From NCBI GenBank assembly GCA_041288095.1, contig JBGGMJ010000186.1, forward strand, positions 1 to 16,043: 16,043 nucleotides of DNA, written 5' to 3'. The DNA is from Myxococcota bacterium (GTDB lineage Bacteria; Myxococcota; XYA12-FULL-58-9; JALHOP01). This document shows positions 1,721 to 16,043 of the stretch, piece after piece (within the stretch, counting starts at the first letter, position 1; each line of letters opens with the position of its first letter). The notes under the pieces were generated by a model, which saw nothing but the letters and a program-made list of their open reading frames with translations, was not told where the DNA came from and ran no database searches. A program made the position numbers and the translations under genes.

Positions 1721-3548
1721 GATTCGAGATGTCGGCGAGGAGGTCGTCGATCTCGGAGAGATCGATGGTGCGTCCGGTCGAGGTCTTGAGCGGTCCGCTG
1801 CTCGCCGCCTTCGGAGGCGGCGGTGGCGTCGCGGACTCGGAGCGCGCGTTGAGCACGGCATCCGCCTCGCTGAGCAGCGAGGACTGGTTGTTCGAGGATG
1901 CGCCGCCGAACGACGCGCTCGCGAGCGAGGCGGGCGAGATCGTGGACCGCATCGGTTTTTCGGTGACGGCGACCGGCACCGGACGCGATACCGGCGTAAT
2001 CCGCGCCAGTGGAACCTGCTGCGGCGGTACCGGCCATGACCCAGAGGACAGCGACGAGCGCTGCGTGTCGGAGCCCTGCGAGAGAGGCTCGGAAGCCGGA
2101 GTCATGGCATCGAGCGCCGCGTCCGAGCCGCGCTCGTCGTCGTCGGGGGTGTCCTCGAAACCGAGCGCCGCACCCTCCTCGACGACCTCGATGTCGAGGT
2201 TCGCGAGCTCGCTGGTGAGTACCTGCGTCTCGTGCTCGCCGTTGCCGTAGCGCGGAGGCGGCATCTCGGGCACGGCGGCCGCTGCCTGCTCGACGATGTT
2301 GTCGAGCAAAATCGGCGCTTCGTCGTAGCGCGGCGCCGGCTCGTCGTCCGAGGGCTCGGGTAAGACCGGCGTCGATTCCGGCTCGGGCTCGATCGGCTCG
2401 TGCAGGAACGCCAGCGGGTCGGCGATGTCATTCGACGACGGGGCCGCGAAGATGGGCGCCGGCTTGGTGGCGAACATGTCGGGCTCGGGTGCCTCGTCGT
2501 CGTCGACCTCGGGCGGCACCGGAGTCGCTTCCTCCGCGACGCGCGCGGCGATGTCCGACGCCTCGTCGACGGTCACGGCGCTCGGGACGTCGTCATCGTC
2601 GCCAGTTGTCGGCGAGCCGAGCTCGTCCGGGTGGCGCGGTACCGCGACGATGGCGTCGTGCCCGGGCGCTCCGTCGAGGGCGAGCTCTTCCTCGATAGGC
2701 ATCGGCGGCGGCACGGCGCCGATAGCGGAGGGGTCCTGCGGCAAGCCGAAGTTCGACGCCACCTGCTGGACGAGATCGAGGTCTGCGAGCCGGCGCTTCG
2801 CGAAGAACATCTCGAGCAGTACGTTATCGCAGACGGTGTTGATGAGACGGGGCACGCCGCCGGTGACGCGATGGATTTCCTGGACCACGGGAACGGGGAA
2901 GAACTGGCGCTTGGCACCGGCGATGCGCAGTCGATGATCGATGTACGCCGCCGTGTCTTCGCCGGTCAGCGGCTTGAGCTGGTAGCGCAGGGCGATGCGC
3001 TGCGCGAGCGGCGGATCGAGCTGCAGATTGCGCACGATCTCCGGCAAGCCGAAGAACACGAACGTGATCAGCTTGCGGTCGGGGACCTCGAGGTTGAGCA
3101 GCCCGCGGAACTCTTCCATGAGCTCGCGGCTGGCGAGCATCTGCGCTTCGTCGATGATGACGACGGCTCGCTTACCCGCCTGGTAGATCTGCAAGAGCCG
3201 CTGGTAGAGCTGCGACAAGATCGTGAGCTTGTCGTCGGCCGGGTCATGGACGCCCAGCTGCGACGCGATCCGCTTGAGCAGCCAGTTGGGGGTGATGCCG
3301 GCGTGCACGATCACCAGCATCGCCGCTTCGTATTCGCTCTCCGGGAGCGCATCGAGCATGCGCCGAGCCAAGGTCGTCTTACCGTGGCCGATGTCGCCGA
3401 TGAGGATAGCGAGCCCCTTCATCGAGCTCGCGGCGTACATGAGGCGGTTGAGCGCCTCGGTATGCTGACGACTCGCGAAGTAGAAGCGCGAGAGCGGAGC
3501 GTTCGAGAACGGCTCGGAGGTCAGCTGGAAGTACTCGAGGTATTCCAT
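1707..3548 (-). CDS. ExeA/GspA-family AAA ATPase with ~340-aa acidic, Pro-rich C-terminal extension (613 aa)
   Basis: N-terminus YLEYFQLTSEPFSNAP..RFYF is typical of ExeA. Walker A GDIGHGKTT, Walker B VVIIDEAQ, then FFGLPE, LAQRI, YIDHRLRIAG and TGGVPRLINTVCDNVL. Residues ~270-595 are low complexity. Confidence 0.9.
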   Translation of the reverse strand: MEYLEYFQLTSEPFSNAPLSRFYFASRQHTEALNRLMYAASSMKGLAILIGDIGHGKTTLARRMLDALPESEYEAAMLVIVHAGITPNWLLKRIASQLGVHDPADDKLTILSQLYQRLLQIYQAGKRAVVIIDEAQMLASRELMEEFRGLLNLEVPDRKLITFVFFGLPEIVRNLQLDPPLAQRIALRYQLKPLTGEDTAAYIDHRLRIAGAKRQFFPVPVVQEIHRVTGGVPRLINTVCDNVLLEMFFAKRRLADLDLVQQVASNFGLPQDPSAIGAVPPPMPIEEELALDGAPGHDAIVAVPRHPDELGSPTTGDDDDVPSAVTVDEASDIAARVAEEATPVPPEVDDDEAPEPDMFATKPAPIFAAPSSNDIADPLAFLHEPIEPEPESTPVLPEPSDDEPAPRYDEAPILLDNIVEQAAAAVPEMPPPRYGNGEHETQVLTSELANLDIEVVEEGAALGFEDTPDDDERGSDAALDAMTPASEPLSQGSDTQRSSLSSGSWPVPPQQVPLARITPVSRPVPVAVTEKPMRSTISPASLASASFGGASSNNQSSLLSEADAVLNARSESATPPPPPKAASSGPLKTSTGRTIDLSEIDDLLADISNLTKK

Positions 3549-3574
3549 GGGCCGCGTCGGACGTTACAAGCTCT

Positions 3575-4408
3575 CTACCTATAGATCCAGGCCAACAGTA
3601 CCTTGGCGATCTGGACCAACGACGCCGGTGAACAGGCCTCGATGGTGTCTGCTCGGGTGTGCCACTCCGGATAGTCCAGGTCCATGAAAAGCGCGGTGGG
3701 AATTCCCGCATCCATGAACGGCAAGTGGTCGCAGGAAATCCACTTGTAGGGGTGGCGCTTGGCCATGCTGAAGGCGGGAAGCGCCAAAGCGCGGCCAAGC
3801 TGGAACAAGCTCAAGGTCAGCTCGTACGACGGATCATGCTCCTGGCAGCTCACGTCGACGTCCAGAACGAGCTCTCGGCCCGCCACCATGTCGACCTCGA
3901 GGCAGGCGTCGGGCCGCTGGTCGTCGGCCATCGCCGTCACGAATCGGGCGGCTCCGAGAGCAACTTCTTTGCCGTCAATCTCGTGCCAATCTTCGGCATC
4001 GCAGAACAAGAGATCGACCGTTGGCCGCTGCCGCCGCTCGGCAAGCGTCGCCACGAGCTCGGCCATCAAGACCGTGCCCGAGCCGCCGTCATTGGCGCCC
4101 GGCACCGGGGCGCGCGGGTCATCGGCGTCGCGGTCGGCCCACGGACGCGTGTCGTAGTGCGTGAGGAGCAAAAGGCGACCCGGCTGGTTGCCGCGCAAGC
4201 GAGCCCAGAAGTTCACGCAGTCGACGTCCTTGCCGAAGAACAGCTCCGTGAAGCGATGCTCACGCGTCTCGTCGGCCGCCGCGAGCCAGGTGCGCAACAG
4301 GCTCTGCGCGGCCAGGTGCCCCGGGGCTCCGCAATAGCGTGCACCCAGCGCTTGCAGCGCCTCGAGACGAGCGAAGGCACCCGCGACGATGGCGTCGGGC
4401 TCACTCAC
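3575..4408 (-). CDS. M28-family Zn metalloenzyme, glutaminyl-peptide cyclotransferase-like (277 aa)
   Basis: THYDTRPWAD, PGANDGGSG, LFCDAEDW, VDMVAG, DHLPF and DYPEWHTRADT motifs. GTG start overlaps the upstream TGA (GTGA, 4405-4408). No signal peptide. Confidence 0.88.
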   Translation of the reverse strand: MSEPDAIVAGAFARLEALQALGARYCGAPGHLAAQSLLRTWLAAADETREHRFTELFFGKDVDCVNFWARLRGNQPGRLLLLTHYDTRPWADRDADDPRAPVPGANDGGSGTVLMAELVATLAERRQRPTVDLLFCDAEDWHEIDGKEVALGAARFVTAMADDQRPDACLEVDMVAGRELVLDVDVSCQEHDPSYELTLSLFQLGRALALPAFSMAKRHPYKWISCDHLPFMDAGIPTALFMDLDYPEWHTRADTIEACSPASLVQIAKVLLAWIYR

Positions 4409-5529
4409 GCGCCGGCGATCACGATGGCGTCGTCCTTGACGGTGAGCTTCACCTCTTGTTCTTGGCCGGCTCCAAAGTGTCTGTAAGCCGCCTCCTCGAG
4501 CGTCGGCACCAGCGCCATGCGCAAGCCGCGGGCGCCGAGCTCGCGTTTCAGGGCCCGCTTCACCACGAGGCTCATGACACTCTCGTCGACGGTGAGCGTC
4601 AGCCCTTCGCTCGCGAACTCGCGGGTGTACCCTTCGATGACGTTGTCGCGCAGGATATCGGCAAGCGTCCCGTCGTCGAGCGGCGCGAAGCCGACCACGC
4701 GCGTGAAGCGCCCGATGAGCTCGGGCAAGAAGCCGTACTTGGCGAACGCGGCCGTATGCTCGAGCACCTGGGCGTCGAGCTTCACCGCGATGGCCTCGGG
4801 GTCGCGCTTGTCGACGTCGCGCCCGAAGCCGATGCGCTCGTGCTCGCTCATGGCGTCAGCGGTGCTCTTGAGCCCGCTGAAGGCGCCACAAGCCACGAAG
4901 GTGAGCCCAGCGAGCGGCAAGGTCAGCTTGGGCGCGAGCTGCGCATAGCCGAAGTCAGCCGGGAACTGCGCCTCGCTGCCGGCGAGCAAGGTGAGCAATC
5001 CACGCTGGACGCCGAAGCCGCTTACGTCTTTGGTGGTGCCCTCGCCGGCGAAGCGCGCGTTGGAGCGGCTCGAGGCCAGCTTGTCGAACTCGTCGATGCA
5101 GACGACGCCGCACGCCGCCCAGCCGAGATCGCCATCGGCGGCTTCGAAGAGCCGCGCCAAGATCATCGTGACGTCCTCACCGATATAGCCGGTCTCGCTG
5201 TACTGGGTGATGTCGACGGTGACGGTCGGCACGGTGAGCACATCGCGAAACAACAGCTCGACCAGGTGGGTCTTGCCGCAGCCCGTCGGGCCGATGAACA
5301 GGTAGTTCTCTCGCGCCGCGATGTCGTTGGCCGGCAACCCCTCGAGGAAGAGGCGCTGCAAGCGGCGGACATGCCTGTATGCCATAACGGACGCAGCCCG
5401 ACGCGCGTGCGTCTGGCCGCGGTAGCCCAACGCCGTCAGACGCGCGTCGACCTCGGGCGGCTTGAGCACCGGGATGCGCGCTACGCGCTCGCGCAAGGTC
5501 GGGCGTTCGGCGGGTTTGGGGGCTGCCAT
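4405..5529 (-). CDS. ClpX-like AAA+ ATPase lacking the N-terminal zinc-binding domain (~374 aa)
   Basis: Walker A GPTGCGKT, pore-1 loop ETGYIGEDV, Walker B CIDEFDK, KDVSGFGVQRGLL, IGF loop (RIGFG), YGFLPELIGRF and sensor-II GARGLR. I placed the start at ATG 5529 rather than 5565 because the extra codons lie in a structured intergenic region. Confidence 0.88.
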   Translation of the reverse strand: MAAPKPAERPTLRERVARIPVLKPPEVDARLTALGYRGQTHARRAASVMAYRHVRRLQRLFLEGLPANDIAARENYLFIGPTGCGKTHLVELLFRDVLTVPTVTVDITQYSETGYIGEDVTMILARLFEAADGDLGWAACGVVCIDEFDKLASSRSNARFAGEGTTKDVSGFGVQRGLLTLLAGSEAQFPADFGYAQLAPKLTLPLAGLTFVACGAFSGLKSTADAMSEHERIGFGRDVDKRDPEAIAVKLDAQVLEHTAAFAKYGFLPELIGRFTRVVGFAPLDDGTLADILRDNVIEGYTREFASEGLTLTVDESVMSLVVKRALKRELGARGLRMALVPTLEEAAYRHFGAGQEQEVKLTVKDDAIVIAGA

Positions 5530-5595
5530 GCAAGCGTATTCTACCGCGCCGCAGGGGCGGCGCATCCCGACGTCGCCGCCCCGCGCTACGCTTGC
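5530..5595 (-). promoter_or_regulatory. Nested inverted repeats (extended stem-loop) containing a TAGAAT -10-like hexamer
   Basis: GCAAGCGTA (5530-5538) pairs with TACGCTTGC (5587-5595), and GGGGCGGCG (5554-5562) pairs with CGCCGCCCC (5574-5582). Minus-strand TAGAAT at 5543-5538 lies 8 nt before ATG 5529. Confidence 0.55.
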
Positions 5596-5596
5596 G

Positions 5597-6379
5597 TCAA
5601 CGGCTGATGCACCTGGTCAAAGCCTCTTGCGCCGACTTTTGCTTGGCTGCCGCCTGATCGACGTAGAGCTGGTAGCGCGAGCACGTCTTGGTATTGCCGC
5701 TGGTGCGACGCACGCACTCATCGAGCTCGTCTTGGGCCTTCTGCATGGCCTCGTCGGCCTTGGCGAGCTTGCTCTTTTCCTTCGGGCACTCGGGCAGCGT
5801 CGGCTGCGCCGGCGGCGGTTGTGCCGGGGCCGTGGCGGAGGGGCTCGGCTGTTGCGTGGTCGGCGACGCGGCCGGCGGGACGCTGGACGCGGGCGCGGTA
5901 GGTTGCGCCGGCGCGTTCTCGGCATCTTTCGGGTGCATGGCGGTGTACTCCTGCGCCTTCACCTCTTCGGCGTATGCCTTCACCGCATCCTTGGCGAAGA
6001 CCGGCGGCGTCCAGCGGACGGTCGCCATGCAGAGATGCTCTCCGGGATTGAATTGGGTGTCTTGGACCGCGGCGCTTTGCATCTTGGCGCGGGCGAAGCG
6101 CTCGAGGAAGACGCGGCCGTCTTCGACACCAACCTCTTTGGCCACCGCCTCCTGGATGTCGTCGTTGTCCTGCGTGAAGCGCAACGCGATGGCGGCCACC
6201 GAGCGGCTCACCGCCGTGTCACACGCGAGGCCTTGGTTCATGCCGGGCCCGGCGGCGCCGGCGACGTAAACCTTGGTGCCACCCTCGTCCATCACCTCGA
6301 CGTGCGTGCCCGGTTTGGTGGAACGACACGCCACCAGCCCCAACAAGCCCAAACCCAAAACCATGACGCGGAGTTGCAT
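5597..6379 (-). CDS. Hypothetical lipoprotein: possible LPP20-like N-domain, Pro/Ala/Gln linker, Cys-clamped helical hairpin (260 aa)
   Basis: Signal peptide MQLRVMVLGLGLLGLVA-C with lipobox, linker APAQPTAPASSVPPAASPTTQQPSP..., and a C-terminal helical region with four Cys. Confidence 0.8.
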   Translation of the reverse strand: MQLRVMVLGLGLLGLVACRSTKPGTHVEVMDEGGTKVYVAGAAGPGMNQGLACDTAVSRSVAAIALRFTQDNDDIQEAVAKEVGVEDGRVFLERFARAKMQSAAVQDTQFNPGEHLCMATVRWTPPVFAKDAVKAYAEEVKAQEYTAMHPKDAENAPAQPTAPASSVPPAASPTTQQPSPSATAPAQPPPAQPTLPECPKEKSKLAKADEAMQKAQDELDECVRRTSGNTKTCSRYQLYVDQAAAKQKSAQEALTRCISR

Positions 6380-6392
6380 GCACCGATCCTTT

Positions 6393-6435
6393 GTCCCTGG
6401 GACGCGGCTGTTAAGTAGCGTATTCTCCTACTTCG
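6393..6435. promoter_or_regulatory. Divergent promoter region between two lipoprotein genes
   Basis: Part of the 56-nt relatively AT-rich gap between divergent starts. Contains the palindrome GTCCC-T-GGGAC (6393-6403) and the inverted repeat AAGTAG-N9-CTACTT (6413-6433), which encloses the -10-like TATTCT (6421-6426). Confidence 0.4.
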
Positions 6436-7458
6436 ATGCGAGAGCACTCCCCCCGGTGCGTCGTTCGTGTGTCTTCCCTCCTCGTGATCGCCCTTGCCGG
6501 CTGTGGCCCCACCGGCGGCAGGCCCGTCGCGCCCGCGCCCAAGGCAGACGACGCGTCGATGCCCAAATGGGTGCGCTCGATGAAAGGCGACGACACGCAT
6601 CTCTGCGGTCTCGGCATCTCGGGCGCGGGTTTCGAGAATTCTCCCTACCCCAAGATCAACGCCCGCGAGCGCGCCGTGCAGAACCTCGCCGGCATCATCG
6701 GCACGCACGTCGAAGAAGCCATGATCGACGACGCGACCATGGCCGGTGACGACGTCCAGTACGCGCGCGTCGTGCATGTCGACGACGAGCTGGTCGCGCA
6801 AGTCGATGGCGCCGCCGAGATCGAATACTGGACCGACGACGAAGGCAAAGGCCCTTACCGCGAGAAGGGCTTCGTCTACGGCTGGGCCTGCATCCCCAAG
6901 GAAAAGGCGGCCGAGACGTTCCAGGTGTCCGCTAAAGCATTCAGCAGCAAGAAACCTCAAGAGCCAGCGGTGAGCTCGCCCGATGTCGTGCCCAAGTGGA
7001 TCGCCAAGGCGGGCAAGCGCAAGGACGGCCGCTTCTGCGCCGTCGGTTACTCGCAGCCAACTTTCCAGGCCGAGATGACCTTCGCGAACGTGGTCGAAGA
7101 CGTGCGCGCGCAGCTCGCCACCACGGTCACCAGTCTGGTCTCGAACTACTTCGAGGAGCTGACGACCATCGACGCCCAGGCCATCCAGTCGATGACCGTG
7201 TCGTCCAACCAAGCGGTCTCCAAAGGCGTCGTGGTCACGCGCTTCTGGTACGACGCCAAAGGCATCGGGCCGCAACACCGCAAGCGCAGCACCTACGGTT
7301 ACGGCTGCGCCTACCCCCTCGAGATCGTCGCAGCGAGCCTCGACAAGGCGAAGACGCTCACCAAACAAACCGTCGAGTCGGTGCGCCAGCACGCCAAGCA
7401 AGCCTTCGACGCGCTCGAGGCCGAGGAACAGAAACACGGCGTCGCGACAGCGAAGTAA
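6436..7458 (+). CDS. Lipoprotein with two tandem LPP20-like domains (340 aa; start could be slightly downstream)
   Basis: Lipobox LLVIALAG-C. Internal duplication: PKWV..LCGLG..YWTDDEGKGP..YGWACIP versus PKWI..FCAVG..FWYDAKGIGP..YGYGCAYP. The P.W / G.G / A...A...LA pattern resembles LPP20-type domains. Confidence 0.78.
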   Translation: MREHSPRCVVRVSSLLVIALAGCGPTGGRPVAPAPKADDASMPKWVRSMKGDDTHLCGLGISGAGFENSPYPKINARERAVQNLAGIIGTHVEEAMIDDATMAGDDVQYARVVHVDDELVAQVDGAAEIEYWTDDEGKGPYREKGFVYGWACIPKEKAAETFQVSAKAFSSKKPQEPAVSSPDVVPKWIAKAGKRKDGRFCAVGYSQPTFQAEMTFANVVEDVRAQLATTVTSLVSNYFEELTTIDAQAIQSMTVSSNQAVSKGVVVTRFWYDAKGIGPQHRKRSTYGYGCAYPLEIVAASLDKAKTLTKQTVESVRQHAKQAFDALEAEEQKHGVATAK

Positions 7459-7464
7459 CCCCGA

Positions 7465-7502
7465 TTGACTTGGGTCGCCTCGGGCGCGAGCATGCCGCCC
7501 GA
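7465..7502 (+). promoter_or_regulatory. Candidate sigma70-type promoter overlapped by a 7-bp inverted repeat
   Basis: TTGACT (7465-7470), 17-nt spacer, weak -10 GAGCAT (7488-7493). TCGGGCG (7480-7486) pairs with CGCCCGA (7496-7502), ending immediately before ATG 7503. Confidence 0.3.
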
Positions 7503-8219
7503 ATGCCTAGCTTCGAGCGCTATGATCGCATCGTCGATGCGTACTCGACGATGTGGCCACTCATCGTTCCGGGCTACGTGCCGTGCTTGAACGCCATGCT
7601 CGAGGCGGTGCGCGCTTTGGACCTTCGGCCGCGCGAGGTCCTCGATCTGGGCTGTGGTCCGGGCTCGGCCATCGTCGCGGTCGCCCCGGCGTGTCACCCC
7701 GAGGCGCGCGTGACCCTGGTCGACGGCGCGCCGAAGATGCTCGCCGCCGCCCAAGCTGTCGTGGGCTCGCGTGCCGCGGCCGCCATCTGCGATGATTTCC
7801 GCAAGCCGGACGTGCTCGCGCGCATTACCCGCCCGCTCTCCTACGACCTCGTGCTCTGCTCGTTCGCGCTCCACCACTGGGACGACGCCGAGAAGCGCAC
7901 GGTCCTCGAAGCCCTCGCCCGCAGCGTCCGCCCGGGCGGCCTGTTGGTTCTCGCCGATGAAGTGGTGGCGGACGCGCCGGCCGGCTGGGACGTGGTCGGC
8001 CGCGTGCGCATGCGCATGATCGACTCCAACATAAGCTCGGGGAGAATCCCCAAGGAGTTCGTGGCGACGGAGGCAGCTCTGCCGCCCGACTTGAGGCTTC
8101 CTTTCAAGCCCAGCCGCACCGACGAGGTGGTAAGCTGGTTAGCGCGATCGGGTCTCGCCGTTGGTGTGCCGTTAACGGTCTTCGGCGCGGCTCTCCACTT
8201 GGCATTGAAACCCGTTTGA
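7503..8219 (+). CDS. Class I SAM-dependent methyltransferase (~238 aa)
   Basis: Motif I VLDLGCGPG, VTLVDGAPKML, YDLVLCSFALHH and VRPGGLLVLAD. The N-terminal IVPGY resembles CmoA-like proteins. The 6996 start in the ORF track overlaps the upstream gene, so ATG 7503 is used. Confidence 0.9.
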   Translation: MPSFERYDRIVDAYSTMWPLIVPGYVPCLNAMLEAVRALDLRPREVLDLGCGPGSAIVAVAPACHPEARVTLVDGAPKMLAAAQAVVGSRAAAAICDDFRKPDVLARITRPLSYDLVLCSFALHHWDDAEKRTVLEALARSVRPGGLLVLADEVVADAPAGWDVVGRVRMRMIDSNISSGRIPKEFVATEAALPPDLRLPFKPSRTDEVVSWLARSGLAVGVPLTVFGAALHLALKPV

Positions 8220-8235
8220 GCGAGCGTTGAAGCAC

Positions 8236-9258
8236 ATGGCCATTCCGATCTCGCAAGCGTCTCCCCCTCCCGTCCCGGTCGCTGGTGACCGCGAGCGTGT
8301 CGCCGAGCTCCGCCAGGCGCGCGACCGCATCCATACCGAGATCGGCAAGCGCGTCATCGGTCAGCGCGAGGTCATCGATCACCTGCTCATCACGCTCTTC
8401 GCGCGCGGCCATGGGCTGTTCGTGGGCGTCCCCGGTCTCGCGAAGACGTTGTTGATTCAGACCTTGGCCGACGTGTTGGACCTGTCGTTCAACCGCATCC
8501 AATTCACGCCCGACCTCATGCCGTCGGACATCACCGGCACCGACATCCTCGAGACCGACGCCGCCGGCGGACGCGCCTTTCGCTTCATCAAGGGTCCGGT
8601 CTTCTGCAACATCCTGCTCGCCGACGAGATCAACCGCACACCGCCGAAGACGCAGGCCGCGCTGTTGCAGTCGATGCAAGAGCAACGGGTCACCGCGGGC
8701 GGCCGCACCTATCCGCTCGACGCGCCCTTCCACGTGTTCGCCACGCAAAACCCCATCGAGCAAGAAGGCACCTACCCGCTCCCGGAAGCGCAGCTCGACC
8801 GCTTCATGATGATGCTGCACGTCGACTATCCGTCGGCGGTCGAAGAGGCGGAGATCGTCCGCCGCACGACCTCGGCGCCGCACGCGCAGGTGGCGAAGAT
8901 TCTGGGCCCCCAGGAGATCCTCGCCTTCCAAGATCTCGTGATGCGCGTGCCCATCTCCGAACCCTCGATCGAGCTCGCCGTGCGCCTGGTGCGCCGCACC
9001 CGCCCGGACGATCCGCAGGCGCCGGCCGAAGTGAAGGAGTTCGTCACCTACGGCGCCGGCCCGCGTGCCTCGCAGCACATCGTGCTCGCCGCGAAAGCGC
9101 GCGCCATCCTCGACGGCCGCCCGGTGGTCGACGGCAGCGACATCAAAGCGCTCGCCTACCCGGTGCTCCGCCATCGCGTGCTGACGAACTTCCATGCCGA
9201 AGCCCGCAAGGTCTCCGCCGACGACATCGTCGCCAAGGTTCTCGAGGGCGTGGTTTGA
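8236..9258 (+). CDS. moxR: MoxR-family AAA+ ATPase
   Basis: VIGQ, GHGLFVGVPGLAKT, FNRIQFTPDLMPSDITG, LLADEINRTPPKTQAALL, ATQNPIEQEGTYPLPEAQLDRF, GAGPRAS and VLRHR. Start is ATG 8236 or TTG 8227. Confidence 0.95.
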   Translation: MAIPISQASPPPVPVAGDRERVAELRQARDRIHTEIGKRVIGQREVIDHLLITLFARGHGLFVGVPGLAKTLLIQTLADVLDLSFNRIQFTPDLMPSDITGTDILETDAAGGRAFRFIKGPVFCNILLADEINRTPPKTQAALLQSMQEQRVTAGGRTYPLDAPFHVFATQNPIEQEGTYPLPEAQLDRFMMMLHVDYPSAVEEAEIVRRTTSAPHAQVAKILGPQEILAFQDLVMRVPISEPSIELAVRLVRRTRPDDPQAPAEVKEFVTYGAGPRASQHIVLAAKARAILDGRPVVDGSDIKALAYPVLRHRVLTNFHAEARKVSADDIVAKVLEGVV

Positions 9259-10148
9259 GCGACGCGACGTTCGAGCTCTCGCCGCAGCTCCTCTCCGACA
9301 TCGAAACCCTGCAGCTCTCGGCCCGCACCATCGTCAGCGGCGCCCTCGCGGGCACGCACCGTTCACTACGCCGCGGCAGCAGCATCGAATTCAGTGAGCA
9401 CAAGCTCTACTCACCGGGCGACGACGTCCGCCACATCGATTGGCGGGCGTTCGCTAAAACGGACCGCTACCACATCAAGCAGTTCGAGGACGAAACCAAC
9501 ATCACGCTCGAGCTGCTCATCGACGGCTCGGCATCGATGGGCTTCGCGGGGCCCGAGCGCGAGCCGAAGCTCGAGTTCGCCAAGAAGCTGGGCGCGGCGC
9601 TTTGCTATCTCGCATTGCGCCAGGGGGACGCGAGCGGCGTCGTCACCTTCGCGACGACGGTGCGCGACGAGCTACCGGCGCGCGCGACCAGCGCCCATTT
9701 GGTCGAGGTGATGCGCTTGCTCGCGCAGCTGCAACCAGCGGGCGAGACTTCGTTGGTGGGCGCCCTCGATCAGTTCGGCCAGCGCAGCCGAAGACGCTCG
9801 TTGCTCGTCATCATCTCGGACTTGTTCGATCCCAACCCGGCCCTGTTCGACGCCTTCCGCCGCCTCGCGGCCCGCCGCCACGACATCGCGCTCATCCACT
9901 TGCTCGATCCCGTGGAGATCGACTTCCCCTACGAAAACCCATCGACCTTCGTGTCGATGGAGGACGACCGCCGTTTGTTCATCCACCCGCGCACGCTGCG
10001 AAACGCCTACGTCAAGGAGATGCGCGAGTTCCTCACGCGGACTTCACGCGCGCTGCGCGAAGCCGGCATCGACTATCGCGAGATCCGCACCGACACCGAT
10101 CCGGCGCAGGTGCTCGGAAGCTTCCTGCGCGAGCGCGAAGCCGGTTAG
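9255..10148 (+). CDS. DUF58 domain protein (vWA-like MoxR partner, 297 aa)
   Basis: G.HRS.RRGSSIEFSEHKLYSPGDDVRHIDWRAFAKTDRYHIKQFEDETN, MIDAS-like DGSASM and IISDLF. TTG start overlaps the moxR TGA. Confidence 0.93.
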   Translation: MSDATFELSPQLLSDIETLQLSARTIVSGALAGTHRSLRRGSSIEFSEHKLYSPGDDVRHIDWRAFAKTDRYHIKQFEDETNITLELLIDGSASMGFAGPEREPKLEFAKKLGAALCYLALRQGDASGVVTFATTVRDELPARATSAHLVEVMRLLAQLQPAGETSLVGALDQFGQRSRRRSLLVIISDLFDPNPALFDAFRRLAARRHDIALIHLLDPVEIDFPYENPSTFVSMEDDRRLFIHPRTLRNAYVKEMREFLTRTSRALREAGIDYREIRTDTDPAQVLGSFLREREAG

Positions 10149-13100
10149 GCCGCCTTGCGCGTTTTGATTCGCATGATCGAGTGATCATGATCGGAGTCGT
10201 CCAGCGGGCTCACCGAGTTGGCGTGGATGTACTGCATCTCGACGCGTCCCTCCTTGAACACCGCGGCCGTGCTCACGATCGGGCAAAGCACCTGCTGCGT
10301 GCCGCGGTAGTTGTAGTCGAAGCGGTCCTCGCGCGGGATGAGCTCCAGGGTGAGGTTTGCGAGCCCGTTCTTGGTGAGCTCCTTGATCGTCGGCGACTGC
10401 TCGGTGGTGTTCGAGTCACCGACCTTGAAGACGTCGACGTTGGGCTCCGCCTTCTGCACCTGCTCCATGCGGCCGCGCACGGTGAGCGCTTGGCCGTTGC
10501 GCTTCTCCTCGCCGCCGATGATGGGCGGCGTGTGCGCCGAGTTCCATGGCGTGGTGCCGCGGCGTGATGCCCAGTGGTCGTTGATGATCTCGAACACGTC
10601 GTTGCCGAACTTGAAGCGCGCGACCAGCGACTTGCGCGAGTCCATGAACGCCGCCTCGCCTTCGCCCAAGCGCTTGACGCTCGTCGGGTCGTGGCTGACG
10701 CGGTCCTTGCGGTAGAAGAAACCGCAGCGGATGTTGCCGCCGGGCTCGCCGCCGTCCTTGCCGTTCTGTGGCGGGACATCGATGTACGAATACTCGGGGC
10801 CGCCCGCTTCCTTGATGAGCCGCGCCATCATCTCGAAGGTCTGATCGGCTTTGACGACGTCGCTCTGCTTGGGCCCGTCGTTGTCCTGAATCTCTTGAAC
10901 CGAAATGACGTCCGGCGACTTCAAGCTGTCGACGATGCGCTTCGCGAGGCGCTTGGCGCGCTCCTGCTCCAGCGGATTGATGTTGAGCATGTTGACGCTG
11001 GCGATGGTGTAGTGGTCCGCGTCACCCGTGAGGCGCGTGACCTCGCTGGTCAGCGGCGGGTTGCTATCGATCGTCGGCGGCGCCGTCAGCTCGATCTGGA
11101 AGTCGCCGGAGCGGTAGCCGACGATGCCCGCAATAGCGGACAGCGTCGCGCCCACCGACAGTGGCGCCGGCCTACCCGCTTGCTCGCGGAACTTGAGACT
11201 CACCTTGGTGAAGTTCTCCACGCCTTCCTTGTGGAGGATTCCGCCAAAGCGGCTGAAGCGGTCGGCTGGCAGCTTCCATGAGTCGGGCAGCACCACCAGG
11301 TCGCCGAAGCGATTCGACGGGCTCACGGCCTTGCCCTTCGGCACCGCGATGCGGCGGCCGAGCAGCTTGCGCCAGTAGTCGGTGGCACCGGCGGCGTCCG
11401 CGGGCGGCGGGCCCAGCTTCTCGAGGTCGACCGGCGGCGACAGTTGCGCTTCGCCGATGCGCTCGGGCGCGGTCGCTTCGACGAGCTCGACCAGGGAGCG
11501 GGCGAACTCGTTGTTGGCGTCGTGGGTTTCGCGGACCGTCGCGGTGAAGCGCACCTGGTCGCCGACCGCGACGCGCGCACCACGCGTGCGCACCAAGAGG
11601 CCGCCCTCTTCGGGGTTCGCCGACTCGACGTAGAAGCCGACGGCGTTGACGCCGCTGACCACGCCCTCGGTCGTGACGCGCTTACCAACGAGCGGGGATG
11701 TGAAGCCGTCGCCGCGGATCTGCCCGATGGTTTGCGCGGCGCCGGTCTTCTGCGGCTTGCCCTTGCGTTCGACCGGCTTGCCCTCGGTGAGCGGCACGAC
11801 CTCGACCCGCCCCGCCATGGCGTTCACGGTGCCGACGCGCAGGTCCATGGTCTCGCCGAGCGTGATGGTGATCGGATTGCCGCCATCGGAGCGCAGGACG
11901 GTGCCGTTCGCCTCGAGGCGGTTGCGACCCGGTAGCTCGACGAAACGCGCGATGTCGGCGTCGGGGAAGTAGACCTCGAAGCCGCGCGGCGACAGGAAGG
12001 TGATCTCGCCTTTCAACACCTTGCCGCTGAAGCCTTCGAGGGCCTTGGCGGAGATGATGTCGCGGATCTCACGCTCGACGCGACTGTCGCGCTCCTGCGC
12101 GATAGCGGCGAACTCCAGCACTTCGGCGCCACGGCTGGTGTCGGGCGTCTGTCCGTCGCGCACTTGGCGCACGAAGGCGTGGTTGCGGGCATCGCGCTCG
12201 CGGCGCATCGGCGCGGTGACCTGCACGTAATGCGCGAGCTTCAGACCTTCGTGACTCGTTGGATCGGCGCTGACGATGGCGCGCGGCTGCGAGCGCAGCA
12301 CGAGGTTACGCACGGCGCGGTACTTCGGCATCGACTTGTCGAGCTTCGCCAGCATCTCCGCCGGCGTCACCTTGTCGGGCCAGTCGACCCCGAGCGTGCG
12401 TACGGCTTCGCGCGCGAGGGCGATGCGCGCCTCATCCGGTGCCTTGTGCACGCGGTGATACGCAGGCGCGTTGTGCTCGACCAGGAACTCGCCGACCAGG
12501 GAGTTCGCGGTGATCGAGATCTGGGCGTTCGCCTCTTCGATCCAGCGCTGGCCGCGACGCTCGAGCACCAGCTCGCCGTTCTCGTCGATGTTGGCCCAGC
12601 GCTCGCCCTCGGGCGCGGTGATCATGCCGCGCGCCTTGGCTTGGTCGAGGAGCGCGCCGCCGACCTTCTTCAAGCGGTTGAACGCGTTCACCAGGACCGG
12701 GTCTTCGACCTTGGCCTTACCGTCGATGAAGTCCTGCGCCAGGCCGTAGTTGGTCTTGCGCTGGCTCTTGATCACGGCGTCGAGGAACTCGGGCTTGCCG
12801 ATGACTTTGCCGTCCGCGCCGACGGTGTACTTGATGATGATCGACGGCCGCTTCACGTCCGGCCCGAGGGAGATCAGGTCCTCGGAGAGCAGGCGGTGCA
12901 GCACCGGCATGTCGACACCCGGCATGTACGTCGTGGTCTGCAAGCGGCGAGCACGCTCGTCGATGGCGCCCGCGTCACCGCCCGATAGCTTGAAGAAATA
13001 GCTGAGGTCCGCGATGGCGTAGTAGACGTCGCTCGCCCCGGGCGTCGTCTTGCTGTCCTCGATGCACATGGCCTGGTCGAGGTCCATCGAGTACGGGTTG

Positions 13101-13945
13101 TCGATGGTGATGAACGGCTTGTCGGTGAGGTCGACATAGCCGTCGATCTTGTCGGGGTTGAACGCGGCCTTGAGCTGCTCGAGCTCGGCCGAATACTTCT
13201 TCGAGAAGGTCGCCTCGACGCCGCGCTGGACGGCGATCTCACTGAGCTTGACGCGCCAAGCGTCTTTCTCGCCGAAGACCGAAGCGAGCTCGGCGGTTCG
13301 GCCTTGCGACAGCGGCTCTTCGATGTGCGCGAGCACCATCTTGCCGAGCAGCGAATCCTGCCCGCCCTTCAAGGGCACGCGCTGCAGAGGCGCGTTCGCA
13401 TCGCGCGCCACGACCGCGAGTCCGGTGCCGTCGCGCTCGACGCGGCCGACGATGCTGTAGACCTTCTCGGTGTCCGAGGTGACGAGCTGCAGGCCGCCCT
13501 CGCTCGCCTGAATGGCGATGCGCCCACCCTCGGCGATGCCTTGCGCGTCCTGCGGGTGCAACACCAGCGGCTTGATGCGGCGGTCGTCGGGATAGAACGT
13601 GGCCTCGATCTGGTTCTTGCGGCCGACGACGCGGCGCAGATGACCGGTGATCTCGCCCTGCAAGTCGCGGCGCGGGGTGGTCATCATCGGCATCAATGCC
13701 GGCGTCACTTCCTTCAACGTGGACGCGATGCTCTGTACGCCCGCGGCGACACCGTCGGCGCCGGTCTTGGGCGCGGCGTTGCGCTGTCGTACGTCCGAGG
13801 CGCTGCTCGGAAGAGGCTTACCGTTGGGCAACGCGGGCGTCGCCTCCGCGCGAGCTGCGCTTCCCGGCGCCGGCGCTTTGGCGGCGGGTGCCTGACCGAT
13901 CTGCTGACGCTCACGCGAACCTTCATTGCCACCAACTCGTCGCAT
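10145..13945 (-). CDS. Fusion protein: RNase II/R RNB domain + S1-like domain + OB-fold + endonuclease/exonuclease/phosphatase (EEP) domain (~1266 aa)
   Basis: RNB motifs DLTDKPFITIDNPYSMDLDQA, YYAIADLSYF, TTYMPG...PVLHRLLSEDLISL, IEEANAQISITAN, YHRVH and HEGLKLAHYVQVTAPMRR. S1-like GKVLKGEIT...GFEVYF. OB-fold TIGQIRG.GFTSPLVGKRVTTEGVVS. EEP motifs SPDVISVQEIQDNDG, GGEPGGNIR, SRKSL, HWAS, GDSN and SDHD. Start placed at ATG 13945 (TGATG overlap with the upstream TPR gene). Confidence 0.9.
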   Translation of the reverse strand: MRRVGGNEGSRERQQIGQAPAAKAPAPGSAARAEATPALPNGKPLPSSASDVRQRNAAPKTGADGVAAGVQSIASTLKEVTPALMPMMTTPRRDLQGEITGHLRRVVGRKNQIEATFYPDDRRIKPLVLHPQDAQGIAEGGRIAIQASEGGLQLVTSDTEKVYSIVGRVERDGTGLAVVARDANAPLQRVPLKGGQDSLLGKMVLAHIEEPLSQGRTAELASVFGEKDAWRVKLSEIAVQRGVEATFSKKYSAELEQLKAAFNPDKIDGYVDLTDKPFITIDNPYSMDLDQAMCIEDSKTTPGASDVYYAIADLSYFFKLSGGDAGAIDERARRLQTTTYMPGVDMPVLHRLLSEDLISLGPDVKRPSIIIKYTVGADGKVIGKPEFLDAVIKSQRKTNYGLAQDFIDGKAKVEDPVLVNAFNRLKKVGGALLDQAKARGMITAPEGERWANIDENGELVLERRGQRWIEEANAQISITANSLVGEFLVEHNAPAYHRVHKAPDEARIALAREAVRTLGVDWPDKVTPAEMLAKLDKSMPKYRAVRNLVLRSQPRAIVSADPTSHEGLKLAHYVQVTAPMRRERDARNHAFVRQVRDGQTPDTSRGAEVLEFAAIAQERDSRVEREIRDIISAKALEGFSGKVLKGEITFLSPRGFEVYFPDADIARFVELPGRNRLEANGTVLRSDGGNPITITLGETMDLRVGTVNAMAGRVEVVPLTEGKPVERKGKPQKTGAAQTIGQIRGDGFTSPLVGKRVTTEGVVSGVNAVGFYVESANPEEGGLLVRTRGARVAVGDQVRFTATVRETHDANNEFARSLVELVEATAPERIGEAQLSPPVDLEKLGPPPADAAGATDYWRKLLGRRIAVPKGKAVSPSNRFGDLVVLPDSWKLPADRFSRFGGILHKEGVENFTKVSLKFREQAGRPAPLSVGATLSAIAGIVGYRSGDFQIELTAPPTIDSNPPLTSEVTRLTGDADHYTIASVNMLNINPLEQERAKRLAKRIVDSLKSPDVISVQEIQDNDGPKQSDVVKADQTFEMMARLIKEAGGPEYSYIDVPPQNGKDGGEPGGNIRCGFFYRKDRVSHDPTSVKRLGEGEAAFMDSRKSLVARFKFGNDVFEIINDHWASRRGTTPWNSAHTPPIIGGEEKRNGQALTVRGRMEQVQKAEPNVDVFKVGDSNTTEQSPTIKELTKNGLANLTLELIPREDRFDYNYRGTQQVLCPIVSTAAVFKEGRVEMQYIHANSVSPLDDSDHDHSIMRIKTRKAA

Positions 13946-14385
13946 CAGCTCGTCGCCTTTCGCGCTTTCGCTTCGTGGGCCAGGCGGGTTGCCATGGCAC
14001 GGGTCGTCTCGTCTCGTCCGTTCAAGGAGAGGTGGGTCGCGACCGCAATCGCGTCGTCCCATTCGCCAATCGAGCTGTGCAGTCGCGCCAGCGCCAGCGC
14101 GGTCTTGTCGTCGTCCTCGAGGGAAAGCGCGGCGCGATATGCCTCGCGCGCGACCGACACTTCGCCGAGCTGGTCCTCGAGCGCGCCGACCGTGCTCCAC
14201 ACCGCGGCCCGCGACGGATCCGTCAGCAGCGCTTCTTGCAAGAGGCGCTCGGCCTCCTCGAAGTCACCGCTGCGCTTGGCGCGTTCGGCGTCACGTAAGA
14301 GGTCGTGCACGTCGTCGGGCACGATAGCGCCCGCGCGTGCCGCACGCAGCGCCGTAAGGCCTTCAGGATCAACGACGATAGCCAT
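13945..14385 (-). CDS. Small acidic tetratricopeptide-repeat protein (~146 aa)
   Basis: TPR-like helices GDFEEAERLLQEALLTDP, AVWSTVGALEDQLGEVSVAREAYRAALSLE and ALALARLHSSIGEWDDA. RBS-like AGAAGG precedes ATG 14385, which is 11 nt after the Kelch gene stop. Confidence 0.85.
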   Translation of the reverse strand: MAIVVDPEGLTALRAARAGAIVPDDVHDLLRDAERAKRSGDFEEAERLLQEALLTDPSRAAVWSTVGALEDQLGEVSVAREAYRAALSLEDDDKTALALARLHSSIGEWDDAIAVATHLSLNGRDETTRAMATRLAHEAKARKATS

Positions 14386-14396
14386 GGTGCAACCTT

Positions 14397-15860
14397 CTAG
14401 CGTGGAACGATGAAAATCTCTGCTGCTTTGCGTGACGAAAGCGCGCCCTTCGCGATGGTGGCGCCGCCGGTGACGAGAATATCGCCGCTCACCAGCTGGG
14501 TCGCGGCGGCTGCGAAGCGGCTGGCGTAGAGGTTGCCAACCGGGTCGATGGTCGGCCGACATGGGCCGGCGTCGAAGGTGAGAAGCTCGGCCCCGTTGCT
14601 CACGTCACCGGGCCCGACCGCCCCGCCCGCGACGAGCAAGCCGCTGGGTGCCGGTGAGACGGCCGCGGCCGCGCGCGCCGTGGTGAGGTTCGCGTCGGAG
14701 CAGGCGATACTGCTCTCCGCGAGATCGTTTTCCACACCGATCACCTCGATGCCGGTGATCGCCGTGCCGCGTCCCAGCTCGAGCACCCGTTCGGCATAAC
14801 CCCCGGCCACGACGATGGCGCGCTTGTTGGGCAGATAGCCCACCGCCGCGTCGCTGCGGGGCGTCCGCAATACCGGACCGCTGATGCTGATGTCGCCCTC
14901 GACGTCGACGAACTCGACGATGCCCACGGTCGTGACCTCGTTCAGGCCGCCAATCATGGCGACCACGGCGTCGTCCACCAACACCGCCGCGTGACGAGCG
15001 CGAGGCGCCTTCAAGCTGGGCCCGTCGATGATGCTGTCGTTGCGCGGGTCGTAGATGGCGGTGCTCGGCAACACCGTGCCGCCCGCACCCAGGCCGCCGG
15101 CGATGAGAACGCGGCCGTCTTTGAGGAGCGTCGCCGTGTGAAAGGCGCGGCCGTCGTCCATGCCGACCGGTCGCAAGAAGGCTTTACCGTCGAAGACCTC
15201 GACCGACGACACCGGCTTGCCGGCCGCATCGAAGCCACCCGACACGAGCACGCGACCGCCGGCGAGGACGGTCGCCGCGTGACCGCTGCGCGCCACCGCC
15301 ATGGCGGGACCAGCGGCGAACAAACCTTCGCGGGGATCGTAGATCTCGGTCGAGCTCACCGGCCCGTTGTCGTCGGCGCCACCCGCGAGGAGCACGCGGC
15401 CGTCGTCGAGCAAGCTCGCCGAATGCGAGGCGCGCGCGGTCAGCTGCTCTGTGCAAGCGGCGTCGACCTCGGCGGTGGGCGTGGCGCGAATGAAGGTGCG
15501 AACCTGGCCCGCGACCACTGCCACGCGTTCCTGGTTCTCGAGCAGGTCGACATAACCGACGCCGCCCGCGACCACGACCGGGCCCACGCCGCCGTCGCGA
15601 TCAGCGAGCCGCCCGGCCACCGCGATAGTGGCGCGCGACACCGCGTTGATGCTGTCGAGGCTACCCTGGGCGTCCCCAGCGCCGAAGGTAGCGCGCACCG
15701 GGGCGTCGAGCTCGGGCGACGCGATAGCAAGCTCGACCCACGCGACGCCGTTGGTCTCGAGTGATGCACCGTTGCAGGGTCGATGGATCTCGAGCTGCAG
15801 CGAGGCCTCGCCCCCGCAAGCAGCGAGGCCCGCGATGGTCAGGGCGATGAGCTGCTTCAC
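14397..15860 (-). CDS. Kelch-repeat (seven-bladed beta-propeller) lipoprotein (~487 aa)
   Basis: Lipobox IAGLAA-C. Seven repeats of the R..H.A.LL.DGRVL.AGG type (ARASHSA, ARSGHAA, GRAFHTA, PRARHAA, PRSDAAV, ARAAAAV, SRFAAAA). GTG 15860 overlaps the upstream TGA; 15863 is an alternative start. Confidence 0.9.
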   Translation of the reverse strand: MKQLIALTIAGLAACGGEASLQLEIHRPCNGASLETNGVAWVELAIASPELDAPVRATFGAGDAQGSLDSINAVSRATIAVAGRLADRDGGVGPVVVAGGVGYVDLLENQERVAVVAGQVRTFIRATPTAEVDAACTEQLTARASHSASLLDDGRVLLAGGADDNGPVSSTEIYDPREGLFAAGPAMAVARSGHAATVLAGGRVLVSGGFDAAGKPVSSVEVFDGKAFLRPVGMDDGRAFHTATLLKDGRVLIAGGLGAGGTVLPSTAIYDPRNDSIIDGPSLKAPRARHAAVLVDDAVVAMIGGLNEVTTVGIVEFVDVEGDISISGPVLRTPRSDAAVGYLPNKRAIVVAGGYAERVLELGRGTAITGIEVIGVENDLAESSIACSDANLTTARAAAAVSPAPSGLLVAGGAVGPGDVSNGAELLTFDAGPCRPTIDPVGNLYASRFAAAATQLVSGDILVTGGATIAKGALSSRKAAEIFIVPR

Positions 15861-16043
15861 CACGCCGCCTGGACCGAGAGGGTCTCGCTCGGCCGATCAC
15901 GGCTCATGAGAAAATACGTCGTGCCACCGGCGAGCGCGGCGCCCGCGGCCACCGCCGTCCAGAACCACCACTTGGTGAAGATGCCGCCGCTCCGCACTTC
16001 GCTGGTGCTGGTCGCGAGTGGCGTATCGTCGTAGGCCAGCGCG
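15857..16043 (-). CDS. C-terminal end of a membrane/envelope protein with a KWWFW tail (5'-truncated by the window edge; not in the ORF track)
   Basis: Manual translation from 16042 gives ALAYDDTPLATSTSEVRSGGIFTKWWFWTAVAAGAALAGGTTYFLMSRDRPSETLSVQAAW*. The stop TGA at 15859-15857 overlaps the Kelch gene GTG. Such tails are typical of myxobacterial TPR/PEGA envelope proteins. Confidence 0.8.
   Translation of the reverse strand, partial: ALAYDDTPLATSTSEVRSGGIFTKWWFWTAVAAGAALAGGTTYFLMSRDRPSETLSVQAAW

Follow-up and report, generated by a model that had tools for sequence, protein, structure and literature searches.

We describe a gene that joins two nuclease modules in one polypeptide. It lies in a 16,043-nucleotide stretch of DNA (hereafter the window) from a Myxococcota metagenome-assembled genome (MAG; assembly GCA_041288095.1, contig JBGGMJ010000186.1, positions 1 to 16,043), where a single uninterrupted gene, 10145..13945 on the minus strand, encodes 1266 residues. 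From the N to the C terminus, the predicted protein has a disordered region, two cold-shock-like barrels, an RNB domain, an S1-like barrel, a linker of ∼20 residues, two OB folds, and an endonuclease/exonuclease/phosphatase (EEP) domain. The most economical reading of this architecture would be a combined nuclease. With a probability of about one half, we propose that it is a leaderless, presumably cytoplasmic, single-chain endo- plus exonuclease that has a tetratricopeptide repeat (TPR) protein as its partner and that arose by one end-to-end fusion. The two OB folds would hold the nucleic acid while the metal-dependent EEP domain would cut it internally, leaving 3′-OH and 5′-phosphate ends. 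The new 3′-OH end would then enter the RNB channel by threading between the cold-shock domain (CSD) barrels and the S1 barrel, and there the RNB domain would degrade it processively in the 3′-to-5′ direction. The TPR protein, made together with the enzyme, would regulate, inhibit, or adapt it. We place the EEP cut before RNB digestion because DNase I-type EEP nucleases leave 3′-OH ends and the RNB site reads a 3′-OH end through its second Asp. The enzyme would most likely act on RNA and may attack single-stranded DNA as well. Both catalytic centers appear to be remodeled, not decayed: In the RNB domain, the RNase II residues D210 and E390 have become Gln and Ala, and a His has become Glu one helical turn earlier, while in the EEP domain an Asp appears to have moved.

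Bacteria are thought to couple endo- and exonucleolytic RNA decay through separate proteins, as in the degradosome. RNB fusions with another enzymatic domain are known, namely Dis3 and HELZ2, and to our knowledge the covalent pairing of an endonuclease with an exonuclease has so far been a eukaryotic hallmark, exemplified by Dis3. A natural RNB–EEP fusion would therefore be a compact model for the handing of a cut to a processive exonuclease. Both modules belong to well-known superfamilies; what appears to be new is the RNB-OB-OB-EEP pairing, of which we found no instance in the literature.

The homology of the N-terminal half is to RNase R and its relatives. Pfam PF00773 (RNB) matches residues 271–594 (E = 2.4e-49; 168.8 bits against a cutoff of 29.3), and the NCBIfam model TIGR02063 (RNase_R) aligns over residues 125–715. 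Because the latter scores 207.5 bits, below its equivalog cutoff of 597.85, we take the protein to be RNase R-like in architecture but no RNase R orthologue. Escherichia coli RNase R (5xgu) aligns to residues 253–710 (E = 8.5e-32), with the S1-like barrel opposite 5xgu residues 565–636. No S1 match was returned by the Pfam scan of the protein; the barrel is known from this alignment and from the fold. In the C-terminal half, residues 740–1257 (518 residues) align by phmmer to residues 3–558 of chain 9sf9_A, which is nuclease A of Streptococcus pyogenes (SpnA), with E = 1.9e-48. Curated hidden Markov models (HMMs) separate the two modules: RNB passes its cutoff, while EEP fails those of PF19580 (22 against 27 bits), PF03372 (15 against 24.5 bits), and NF033681 ExeM_NucH (66.8 against 300 bits, E = 1.7e-18), although relatives within the family carry precomputed PF19580/PF03372 labels. 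Read strictly, the missed EEP cutoffs match a ground that the initial annotation had named for giving up its proposal. There is no doubt that the EEP homology is beyond chance despite the missed cutoffs, because it rests both on the SpnA alignment and on a Foldseek match to Tdp2 (E = 7e-12).

A predicted structure agrees with this mapping. AlphaFold2 (AF2) was run on residues 96–1266 (1171 residues, the N-terminal residues 1–95 being left out) from an alignment of 72 rows that combined family members with stand-alone relatives and RNase R sequences. It gave a confident single chain in the expected domain order, with a mean predicted local distance difference test score (pLDDT) of 92.5 and a predicted template modeling score (pTM) of 0.82. 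CSD1 and CSD2 appear as two five-strand blocks at model residues 3–59 and 69–128, the strands of the S1-like barrel lie at model residues 548–623, and the C half consists of two OB barrels and an alpha/beta EEP domain. Such a pTM for a model of 1171 residues suggests that each half is oriented in a defined way relative to the other. Against the PDB, Foldseek matched the N half to RNase R, RNase II, Dis3L2, and Rrp44 (5xgu: E = 9e-36, target-normalized TM score 0.73, 658 columns), the RNase R/II matches covering the CSD1 and CSD2 barrels as well. The C half matched EEP enzymes, with Tdp2 as the best EEP fold match. The segment SHEGLKLAHYVQVTAP (residues 564–579, window 12209–12256), invariant in the family and adjoining the catalytic R581, is the only long stretch with a pLDDT below 50; it may be an alignment artifact or a substrate-dependent loop.

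The initial annotation, a model's note made from the sequence without database searches, had described one unbroken open reading frame (ORF) at 10145..13945, and this was borne out. The mechanical ORF listing instead gave 10145..14200 on the minus strand, 1351 residues opening with GTG. We set the start at 13945 because the ATG there shares one base (TGATG) with the stop codon of the upstream TPR gene, 13945..14385 on the same strand. The GTG start at 14200 was dropped because its 85 extra codons run out of frame within the TPR gene. The spans proposed in that annotation for the RNB (∼13140–12180), S1-like (∼12030–11790), OB (from ∼11730), and EEP (∼11010–10150) regions all agree with our domain mapping.

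Rarity and origin of the fusion

The fusion occurs in a narrow group of genomes. A first search returned 14 full-length proteins of 1245–1283 residues that cover at least 90% of the query at 41–90% identity, and a second returned 7 more, one of which (P0177) is encoded on a 6,048,587-bp contig. Together these make 21 further full-length 90%-identity clusters, at 41–92% identity and with the same architecture, drawn from ncbi, ena, jgi, and lgn sources. The names given to them there do not go beyond “RNB domain-containing ribonuclease” and “VacB/RNase II family.” The proteins come from Myxococcota or Deltaproteobacteria MAGs, apart from one partial sequence labeled Clostridia. When one genome per species was scanned, six loci turned up, each of them in a MAG labeled Myxococcota (3), Myxococcales (2), or Bdellovibrionales (1). 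The taxonomic spread of the architecture is thus a small group of uncultured Myxococcota-type MAGs. When 1.84 billion representatives at 50% identity were scanned exhaustively with HMMER, the best 150 included three full-length fusions (P0007, P0025, and P0015); the remainder were OB-EEP proteins or RNB-only proteins. The RNB-OB-OB-EEP fusion is rare. Our literature search found no paper pairing an RNB domain with an endonuclease/exonuclease/phosphatase domain, in keeping with the initial annotation, whose author knew of no characterized protein that combines the two. With three fusions among the best 150 representatives and no paper found, the architecture appears to be neither common nor characterized.

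An assembly chimera, a missed stop, or a frameshift at the junction could mimic such a protein. The window does come from a metagenome-type assembly, and its closest database entry, P0006, is itself a partial MAG protein. However, the same uninterrupted ORF recurs in independent assemblies: in the 21 other clusters down to 41% identity, at six loci, and on the 6-Mb contig noted above. The GC content at third codon positions is alike in the two halves (N half, 0.88; C half, 0.90), and AF2 is confident of the protein as one chain. An artifactual origin is effectively refuted.

The way in which the two halves were joined can be read from their stand-alone relatives. In the representative scan, RNB-only relatives of ∼740–770 residues match the N half at 32–36% identity and end in VDAVPANDA or a similar sequence where the S1 barrel of the fusion ends in VEVVPL. 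Stand-alone OB-EEP relatives of 525–565 residues match the C half at 35–40% and open directly at the first OB fold, the leaderless ones beginning ..IYAIQGSGFTSP where the OB module of the fusion begins ..IGQIRGDGFTSP. Because the stand-alone relatives end just before and begin just after the linker, the junction at residues 719–739 looks as if two complete proteins had simply been joined end to end. In FastTree phylogenies, the fusion family forms one clade both in the EEP tree (155 tips, support 0.997) and in the RNB tree (243 tips, support 1.0). Since both halves are monophyletic, a single fusion event in a myxobacterial lineage is the simplest reading. The successive sisters of the fusion in the EEP tree are the leaderless proteins P0087/P0171 (0.756) and then P0028 (0.97). 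The partners were most likely an RNase R-like protein of ∼750 residues, of the “DxDQ” type described below, and a leaderless OB-OB-EEP nuclease of the SpnA/ExeM type.

The two predicted catalytic centers

The EEP module can be compared with two characterized nucleases. SpnA, known from the cryo-EM structures 9SF8/9SF9, whose resolved part is OB3-OB4-NUCL, is a Mg-dependent endo/exonuclease that needs its OB domains for catalysis (PMC13601614). ExeM acts as a sugar-unspecific endonuclease that degrades DNA and RNA and requires its OB region together with the EEP domain (PMC6085458). The residues named for SpnA are E592, R696, H716, D767, N769, D810, and D842, with D810 reported as essential (PMC13601614). 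Their equivalents in the fusion are E1018, R1104, H1124, D1177, N1179, and D1252/H1253, to which N985 can be added. These eight EEP residues are invariant in the family and conserved in 152–156 of 156 aligned homologue rows, one of which (P0001) duplicates the query. Six of the seven SpnA catalytic residues are thus present, while the position of D810 is occupied by C1221, in a column that holds Cys, Gln, or Thr across the fusion family.

The loss of this Asp is matched by a gain elsewhere. Among 153 distinct homologues alignable at both columns, 131 carry the canonical Asp. In 130 of these the D1210 column is occupied by Thr, Ser, Gly, or Asn, and the remaining one carries Asp in both columns. 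Where the canonical Asp is absent, the D1210 column holds Asp in 21 of 21 cases, namely 18 members of the fusion family plus P0028, P0171, and P0087, which are leaderless. A single protein has Glu at the canonical column. Both positions lie on the arms of a tight hairpin, RFDYNYRG-TQQVLC, for which DSSP assigns strands at model residues 1116–1118 and 1121–1123. Because the two positions sit on two arms of one hairpin, a carboxylate could reach the same place from either. Covariation and secondary structure therefore point to D1210 as a putative relocated catalytic Asp of the Asp–His pair, apparently on the neighboring strand. To judge from the EEP tree, this relocation predates the fusion. The module would serve as a clear case from nature in which a catalytic Asp seems to have shifted to the strand next to it.

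The initial annotation had considered that the EEP domain might act as a 3′-end-healing phosphatase or phosphodiesterase, removing 3′-phosphate or 2′,3′-cyclic phosphate groups so that the RNB domain can engage. The EEP superfamily does include 3′-phosphatase and phosphodiesterase activities, such as those of ExoIII/APE1 and of Tdp2, the best fold match here. The RNB site, for its part, reads the 3′-OH through its second Asp (PMC8097288). We nevertheless regard it as very improbable and found no specific support for it. The module is of the SpnA/ExeM type with two OB folds, as the SpnA alignment and the NF033681 match indicate, and the characterized members of this type, SpnA and ExeM among them as the nearest relatives, are described as endo/exonucleases (PMC6085458 and PMC13601614).

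The RNB center also departs from the canonical pattern. Alignment with RNase II (2id0) equates D201, D207, and D209 with D282, D288, and D290 of the fusion but places Q291 at D210. Among the other pocket residues, Y253, Y313, and R500 correspond to Y340, Y400, and R581, and E390 corresponds to A474. Motif I accordingly reads DxxxxxDxDQ, invariant in 15 of 15 family members, in place of the four-Asp motif DxxxxxDxDD; it is the fourth, Mg-binding Asp that has become Gln. Y340, Y400, and R581 are kept and invariant in the family, and R582 and D585 are also retained. Reportedly, Barbas et al. have mutant data on RNase II D210N, and Y313 and E390 are said by the same authors to set RNA-versus-DNA specificity.

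This variant defines a deep clade. Among the RNB proteins fetched, we tallied 132 with DxDQ and 110 with DxDD, the sequences being picked by a regular expression that demands three Asp residues and a PxRR motif. At the column of Q291, all 132 sequences of the “DQ” clade have Q and all 110 RNase R-like sequences have D. In the RNB tree, the DxDQ sequences and the query form one clade of 133 tips with support 1.0, made up of 22 fusions, ∼20 proteins of ∼750 residues, and 92 of ∼480 residues. The short members include Streptomyces (e.g., P0289), Nocardioides (e.g., P0296), and Planosporangium sequences. Some 90 actinobacterial RNB proteins (P0289–P0391, ∼450–495 residues) carry PF00773 and PF18614 and all read DLDQA. 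The clade has further marks of its own. Position 470 is Glu in 129 of 132 members versus His in 98 of 110 canonical sequences, and at the E390 column 108 of 132 members have Ala, against Glu in all 110 canonical sequences; Gln475, Ser477, Asn473, Tyr309, and Ala578 are likewise clade-specific. Because position 470 sits four residues ahead of 474, the carboxylate appears to have moved one helical turn earlier, and the gained E470 may compensate. In our literature search, the DLDQ motif did not occur among the matches listed, nor was anything relevant to actinobacterial RNB proteins found among the matches listed. No paper on the D201N and D207N mutants of an RNB domain was found either.

The four-Asp motif is described as the active site signature of the family and its loss as a criterion for a pseudonuclease, with the fourth Asp as a Mg ligand and RNase II D207 as the contact to the substrate 3′-OH (PMC8097288). 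The RNB half could then bind and thread single-stranded RNA as Ssd1 does, positioning the substrate and leaving EEP as the sole catalytic center. The invariant DxxxxxDxDQ motif and the Ala at the E390 equivalent fit this alternative, and Foldseek also matches the pseudonuclease Ssd1 (7am1, E = 1.9e-21). We nonetheless consider it unlikely, as only one of the four Asp residues is changed, and that to a Gln that is invariant (132 of 132) across Actinobacteria and Myxococcota. The retention of Y340, Y400, R581, and D585 resembles a remodeled site, and the gained E470 may offset the loss. Because one ligand has changed to an invariant Gln while the remaining pocket residues are retained throughout a very deep clade, we predict an active RNB domain at odds of roughly seven to three. 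The carbonyl oxygen of the Gln could still bind metal, and overall the RNB site looks remodeled, not decayed. The earlier description of this half as an exoribonuclease module thus stands as regards the RNB family and the CSD1-CSD2-RNB-S1 order, while motif I departs from it in reading DxDQ and not DxDD. The question reaches beyond the fusion. With at least 133 RNB proteins, many of them from cultured Actinobacteria, the DxDQ clade is a possible exception to the four-Asp rule, and its active or pseudonuclease status affects the annotation of thousands of “RNase R/II-like” genes.

Cellular location, partner protein, and known relatives

The fusion appears to be an intracellular protein. We examined leaders and transmembrane segments by Kyte–Doolittle hydropathy. 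Within the first 100 residues the 12-residue mean peaks at 1.3 (position 66), and the highest 19-residue mean over the whole protein is 1.27, whereas the secreted OB-EEP relatives peak at 2.4–2.9 at positions 3–8. By this measure, neither the window protein nor any of the 21 family members has a hydrophobic leader or transmembrane segment, which agrees with the earlier remark that no Sec or lipoprotein signal is present. The companion statement that OB+EEP proteins are usually secreted does not hold for all of them, as the module of the fusion descends from the leaderless stand-alone clade of P0028, P0171, and P0087. For a leaderless OB-EEP clade with a conserved TPR partner, one may ask how a protein related to nonspecific secreted DNases is made safe, or useful, inside a cell.

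The TPR partner, which the initial annotation had missed, is encoded by a gene for ∼146 residues directly upstream of the nuclease in six of six related loci and in the window. Its stop codon overlaps the start of the nuclease gene by 1, 1, 1, 1, 14, 4, and 14 nucleotides in the seven loci, and it is the sole neighbor conserved across all of them. Because the two genes are translationally coupled, their arrangement suggests a stoichiometric TPR–nuclease complex. The TPR protein probably binds the enzyme, perhaps at the disordered N terminus, as a regulator, inhibitor, or adaptor. The N-terminal region of the fusion opens with a semiconserved M-R-R-[IVL]-[DG]-N. The starts of the fusions (MRRIDN, MRLDNH, and MRRVGGN) resemble those of the ∼750-residue RNB relatives (MSRIGH, MKVGDR, and MTRVGD), a common basic start M-[RK]-R-[IVL]-[DG] preceding a long low-complexity stretch. 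One possibility is that this start docks the TPR partner; another is that it acts as a targeting signal. The AF2 model of the TPR protein has a pLDDT of 90.2, and its Foldseek matches are generic three-repeat peptide-binding modules (designed CTPRs, Hop TPR1, SGT, PcrH, IpgC, and SycD). NCBIfam and ESM Atlas searches of the TPR protein returned nothing specific, and PADLOC had no family for the nuclease or its partner at E ≤ 0.01.

A coupled partner of this kind invites a different reading, in which the double nuclease is an exported effector or toxin of antagonism or predation that destroys the nucleic acids of a target cell, with its N terminus as a secretion signal and the TPR protein as a chaperone or immunity protein. 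All characterized OB-EEP relatives (SpnA and ExeM) act extracellularly, a nonspecific nuclease would be toxic in the cytoplasm, the small coupled upstream gene is conserved in seven of seven loci, and the hosts belong to the Myxococcota, many of which are predators. The TPR model also resembles the class II chaperones of type III secretion, PcrH, IpgC, and SycD, at TM scores of 0.73–0.77, a likeness common to many unrelated three-repeat modules, and it matches TIGR02552 (LcrH_SycD) at E = 4e-4, with 20 bits against a cutoff of 104.8. We judge an exported effector to be quite improbable, however. Hydropathy gives no Sec, Tat, or lipoprotein leader, Pfam and NCBIfam recognize no trafficking domain, no secretion genes occur among conserved neighbors, and PADLOC gives no match. 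The LcrH_SycD score falls far short of its cutoff, and the fold matches of the TPR protein are of a generic kind. Immunity genes are usually found downstream of their toxins, and an RNase R-like half is usual for cytoplasmic enzymes with housekeeping roles.

Several points weigh against the cytoplasmic combined nuclease that we propose. The canonical EEP Asp, the reportedly essential D810 of SpnA (PMC13601614), is missing, and the EEP module misses every curated HMM cutoff. The RNB domain lacks the fourth Asp, for which the criterion given in PMC8097288 predicts a pseudonuclease. The conservation counts for D282, D288, D290, and R581 are partly circular, these residues having entered into the selecting expression, although failures of that expression are few: 2 of 136 sequences in one set and about 3 of 114 in another, of which P0281 and P0350 are spurious matches and P0355 reads DLAQA. 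Residues 564–579, with the invariant HxGL...TAP motif, are modeled at a pLDDT below 50. Finally, a nonspecific nuclease would be dangerous in the cytoplasm, which favors either tight inhibition or export.

It is useful to contrast the fusion with the systems it resembles. It shares with RNase R and RNase II of E. coli (5xgu and 2id0/2ix1) the CSD1-CSD2-RNB-S1 order and fold and conserves D201, D207, D209, Y253, Y313, and R500. It differs in having Gln at D210 and Ala at E390, at ∼20–29% identity, in carrying a 95-residue disordered N terminus in place of the helix-turn-helix of RNase R, and in continuing after S1 into a 530-residue nuclease module. Closer are the stand-alone DxDQ proteins of ∼750 residues from Myxococcota/Deltaproteobacteria MAGs (P0034 and P0179), which have the same N-terminal layout and end at the linker of the fusion. 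Together with the ∼480-residue proteins they share DLDQA, Y309, E470, N473, Q475, S477, and A578 and a monophyletic origin (support 1.0) with the fusion, but they lack the OB-EEP module. Our literature search found no characterization of these stand-alone proteins.

The C half compares with SpnA and the ExeM/NucH/Xds type through an OB-OB-EEP module over 518 residues, with conserved equivalents of SpnA E592, R696, H716, D767, N769, and D842/H843. In contrast to SpnA and ExeM, which are secreted or anchored (by a signal peptide, LPXTG, or a C-terminal anchor), the fusion has no leader; it also lacks the LTD and the extra OB1/OB2 domains, scores below the NF033681 cutoff, and has Cys, Gln, or Thr in place of D810 with an Asp on the adjacent strand. 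The leaderless OB-EEP proteins P0028, P0171, and P0087 (556–565 residues, metagenomic) are sister groups that share the relocated Asp in an RFDYN-type hairpin and start directly at the first OB fold, but they have no RNB fusion.

An analogy in design is offered by Dis3/Rrp44, in which one chain unites a PIN endonuclease with an RNB exonuclease (PMC8097288). The fusion likewise has an endonuclease and an RNB domain in one chain, and its RNB fold matches that of Dis3/Rrp44 in Foldseek at E ∼1e-29. However, the PIN endonuclease of Dis3 is N-terminal whereas the OB-OB-EEP module is C-terminal, and Dis3 keeps DxDD and works on the exosome core. No PIN match was found in the fusion protein with Pfam and NCBIfam at E ≤ 1. 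The likeness is best seen as an analogy of logic between proteins of independent origin. We put forward, tentatively, that the fusion might be an independently evolved bacterial counterpart of Dis3: a rigid chain, gated by the TPR protein, in which an OB-guided EEP domain feeds the RNB domain and both sites use relocated carboxylates. If this were true, the whole DxDQ clade would be active, including the ∼480-residue actinobacterial proteins, and the DxxxxxDxDD rule would be wrong.

Feature coordinates and neighboring genes

Table 1. Features of the nuclease fusion gene and its TPR partner in the window
Feature	Position	Strand	Description
Fusion gene	10145..13945	(-)	1266 aa; stop codon 10145..10147; full-length relatives at 41–92% identity
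N-terminal low-complexity region, residues 1–95	13661..13945	(-)	Presumably disordered; weakly conserved beyond first residues in family alignment
CSD1 + CSD2 equivalents, residues ∼96–225	13271..13660	(-)	Two cold-shock/OB-like beta-barrels
RNB catalytic domain, residues 271–594	12164..13135	(-)	Pfam PF00773
RNB motif I IDNPYSMDLDQ, residues 282–291	13073..13102	(-)	Variant DxxxxxDxDQ
S1-like beta-barrel, residues ∼641–718	11792..12025	(-)	5xgu alignment and AF2 fold
Fusion junction, residues 719–739	11729..11791	(-)	Variable Lys/Pro-rich linker; poorly conserved; pLDDT 60–71
Two OB folds, residues 740–965	11051..11728	(-)	Equivalents of SpnA OB3 and OB4; AF2 beta-barrels
EEP (DNase I-like) nuclease domain, residues ∼975–1260	10166..11023	(-)	SpnA alignment; Foldseek to Tdp2
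EEP hairpin RFDYNYRGTQQVLC	10283..10318	(-)	D1210 at 10316..10318; C1221 at 10283..10285
TPR partner gene	13945..14385	(-)	146 aa; Pfam TPR matches; three TPR repeats and capping helix

Across the six related loci and the window, no conserved neighbor was found besides the TPR gene, and the genes that flank the pair in the window are shared with few of the other loci. Upstream, a gene for a Kelch-repeat beta-propeller protein of 488 residues (14397–15863, minus strand) ends 11 nucleotides before the TPR gene and probably belongs to the same operon; it is conserved only in the loci L001–L003 and is absent from the distant ones. On the other side, a MoxR AAA+ ATPase gene and a DUF58/VWA gene (8227–10148, plus strand), which overlap each other by 4 nucleotides, converge on the nuclease gene, with stop codons overlapping at 10145–10148. 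This pair is conserved only in L001 and L002. In L001, the closest relative at 90% identity, ∼4.5 kb (11800–16294) are inserted between the nuclease and DUF58 genes. The insert contains an ORF for an IS200-like Y1 transposase (13208–14047, minus strand), a gene for a 714-residue protein with MopE-type Cu-binding repeats (14150–16294, plus strand), and a 363-residue ORF with no family match.

Farther from the nuclease, a run of genes on the minus strand (1707–5565) encodes an AAA_22 ATPase, then an M28 peptidase, and then a ClpX-like ATPase. The first, of 613 residues, resembles the XrtA/PEP-CTERM-associated ATPase (TIGR03015, E = 4.5e-58, below cutoff); the last, of 386 residues, matches ClpX from model position 58 onward and lacks the N-terminal zinc-binding part. 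No family match was found for the 260-residue ORF at 5597..6379 (minus strand) or for the 340-residue ORF at 6436..7458 (plus strand). The latter lies in the region 6436–8219 and overlaps the 407-residue ORF at 6996..8219 on the same strand by ∼460 nucleotides. In the 407-residue ORF, an S-adenosylmethionine-dependent methyltransferase domain occupies residues 204–344 only, and the true start of the methyltransferase is probably well downstream of 6996.

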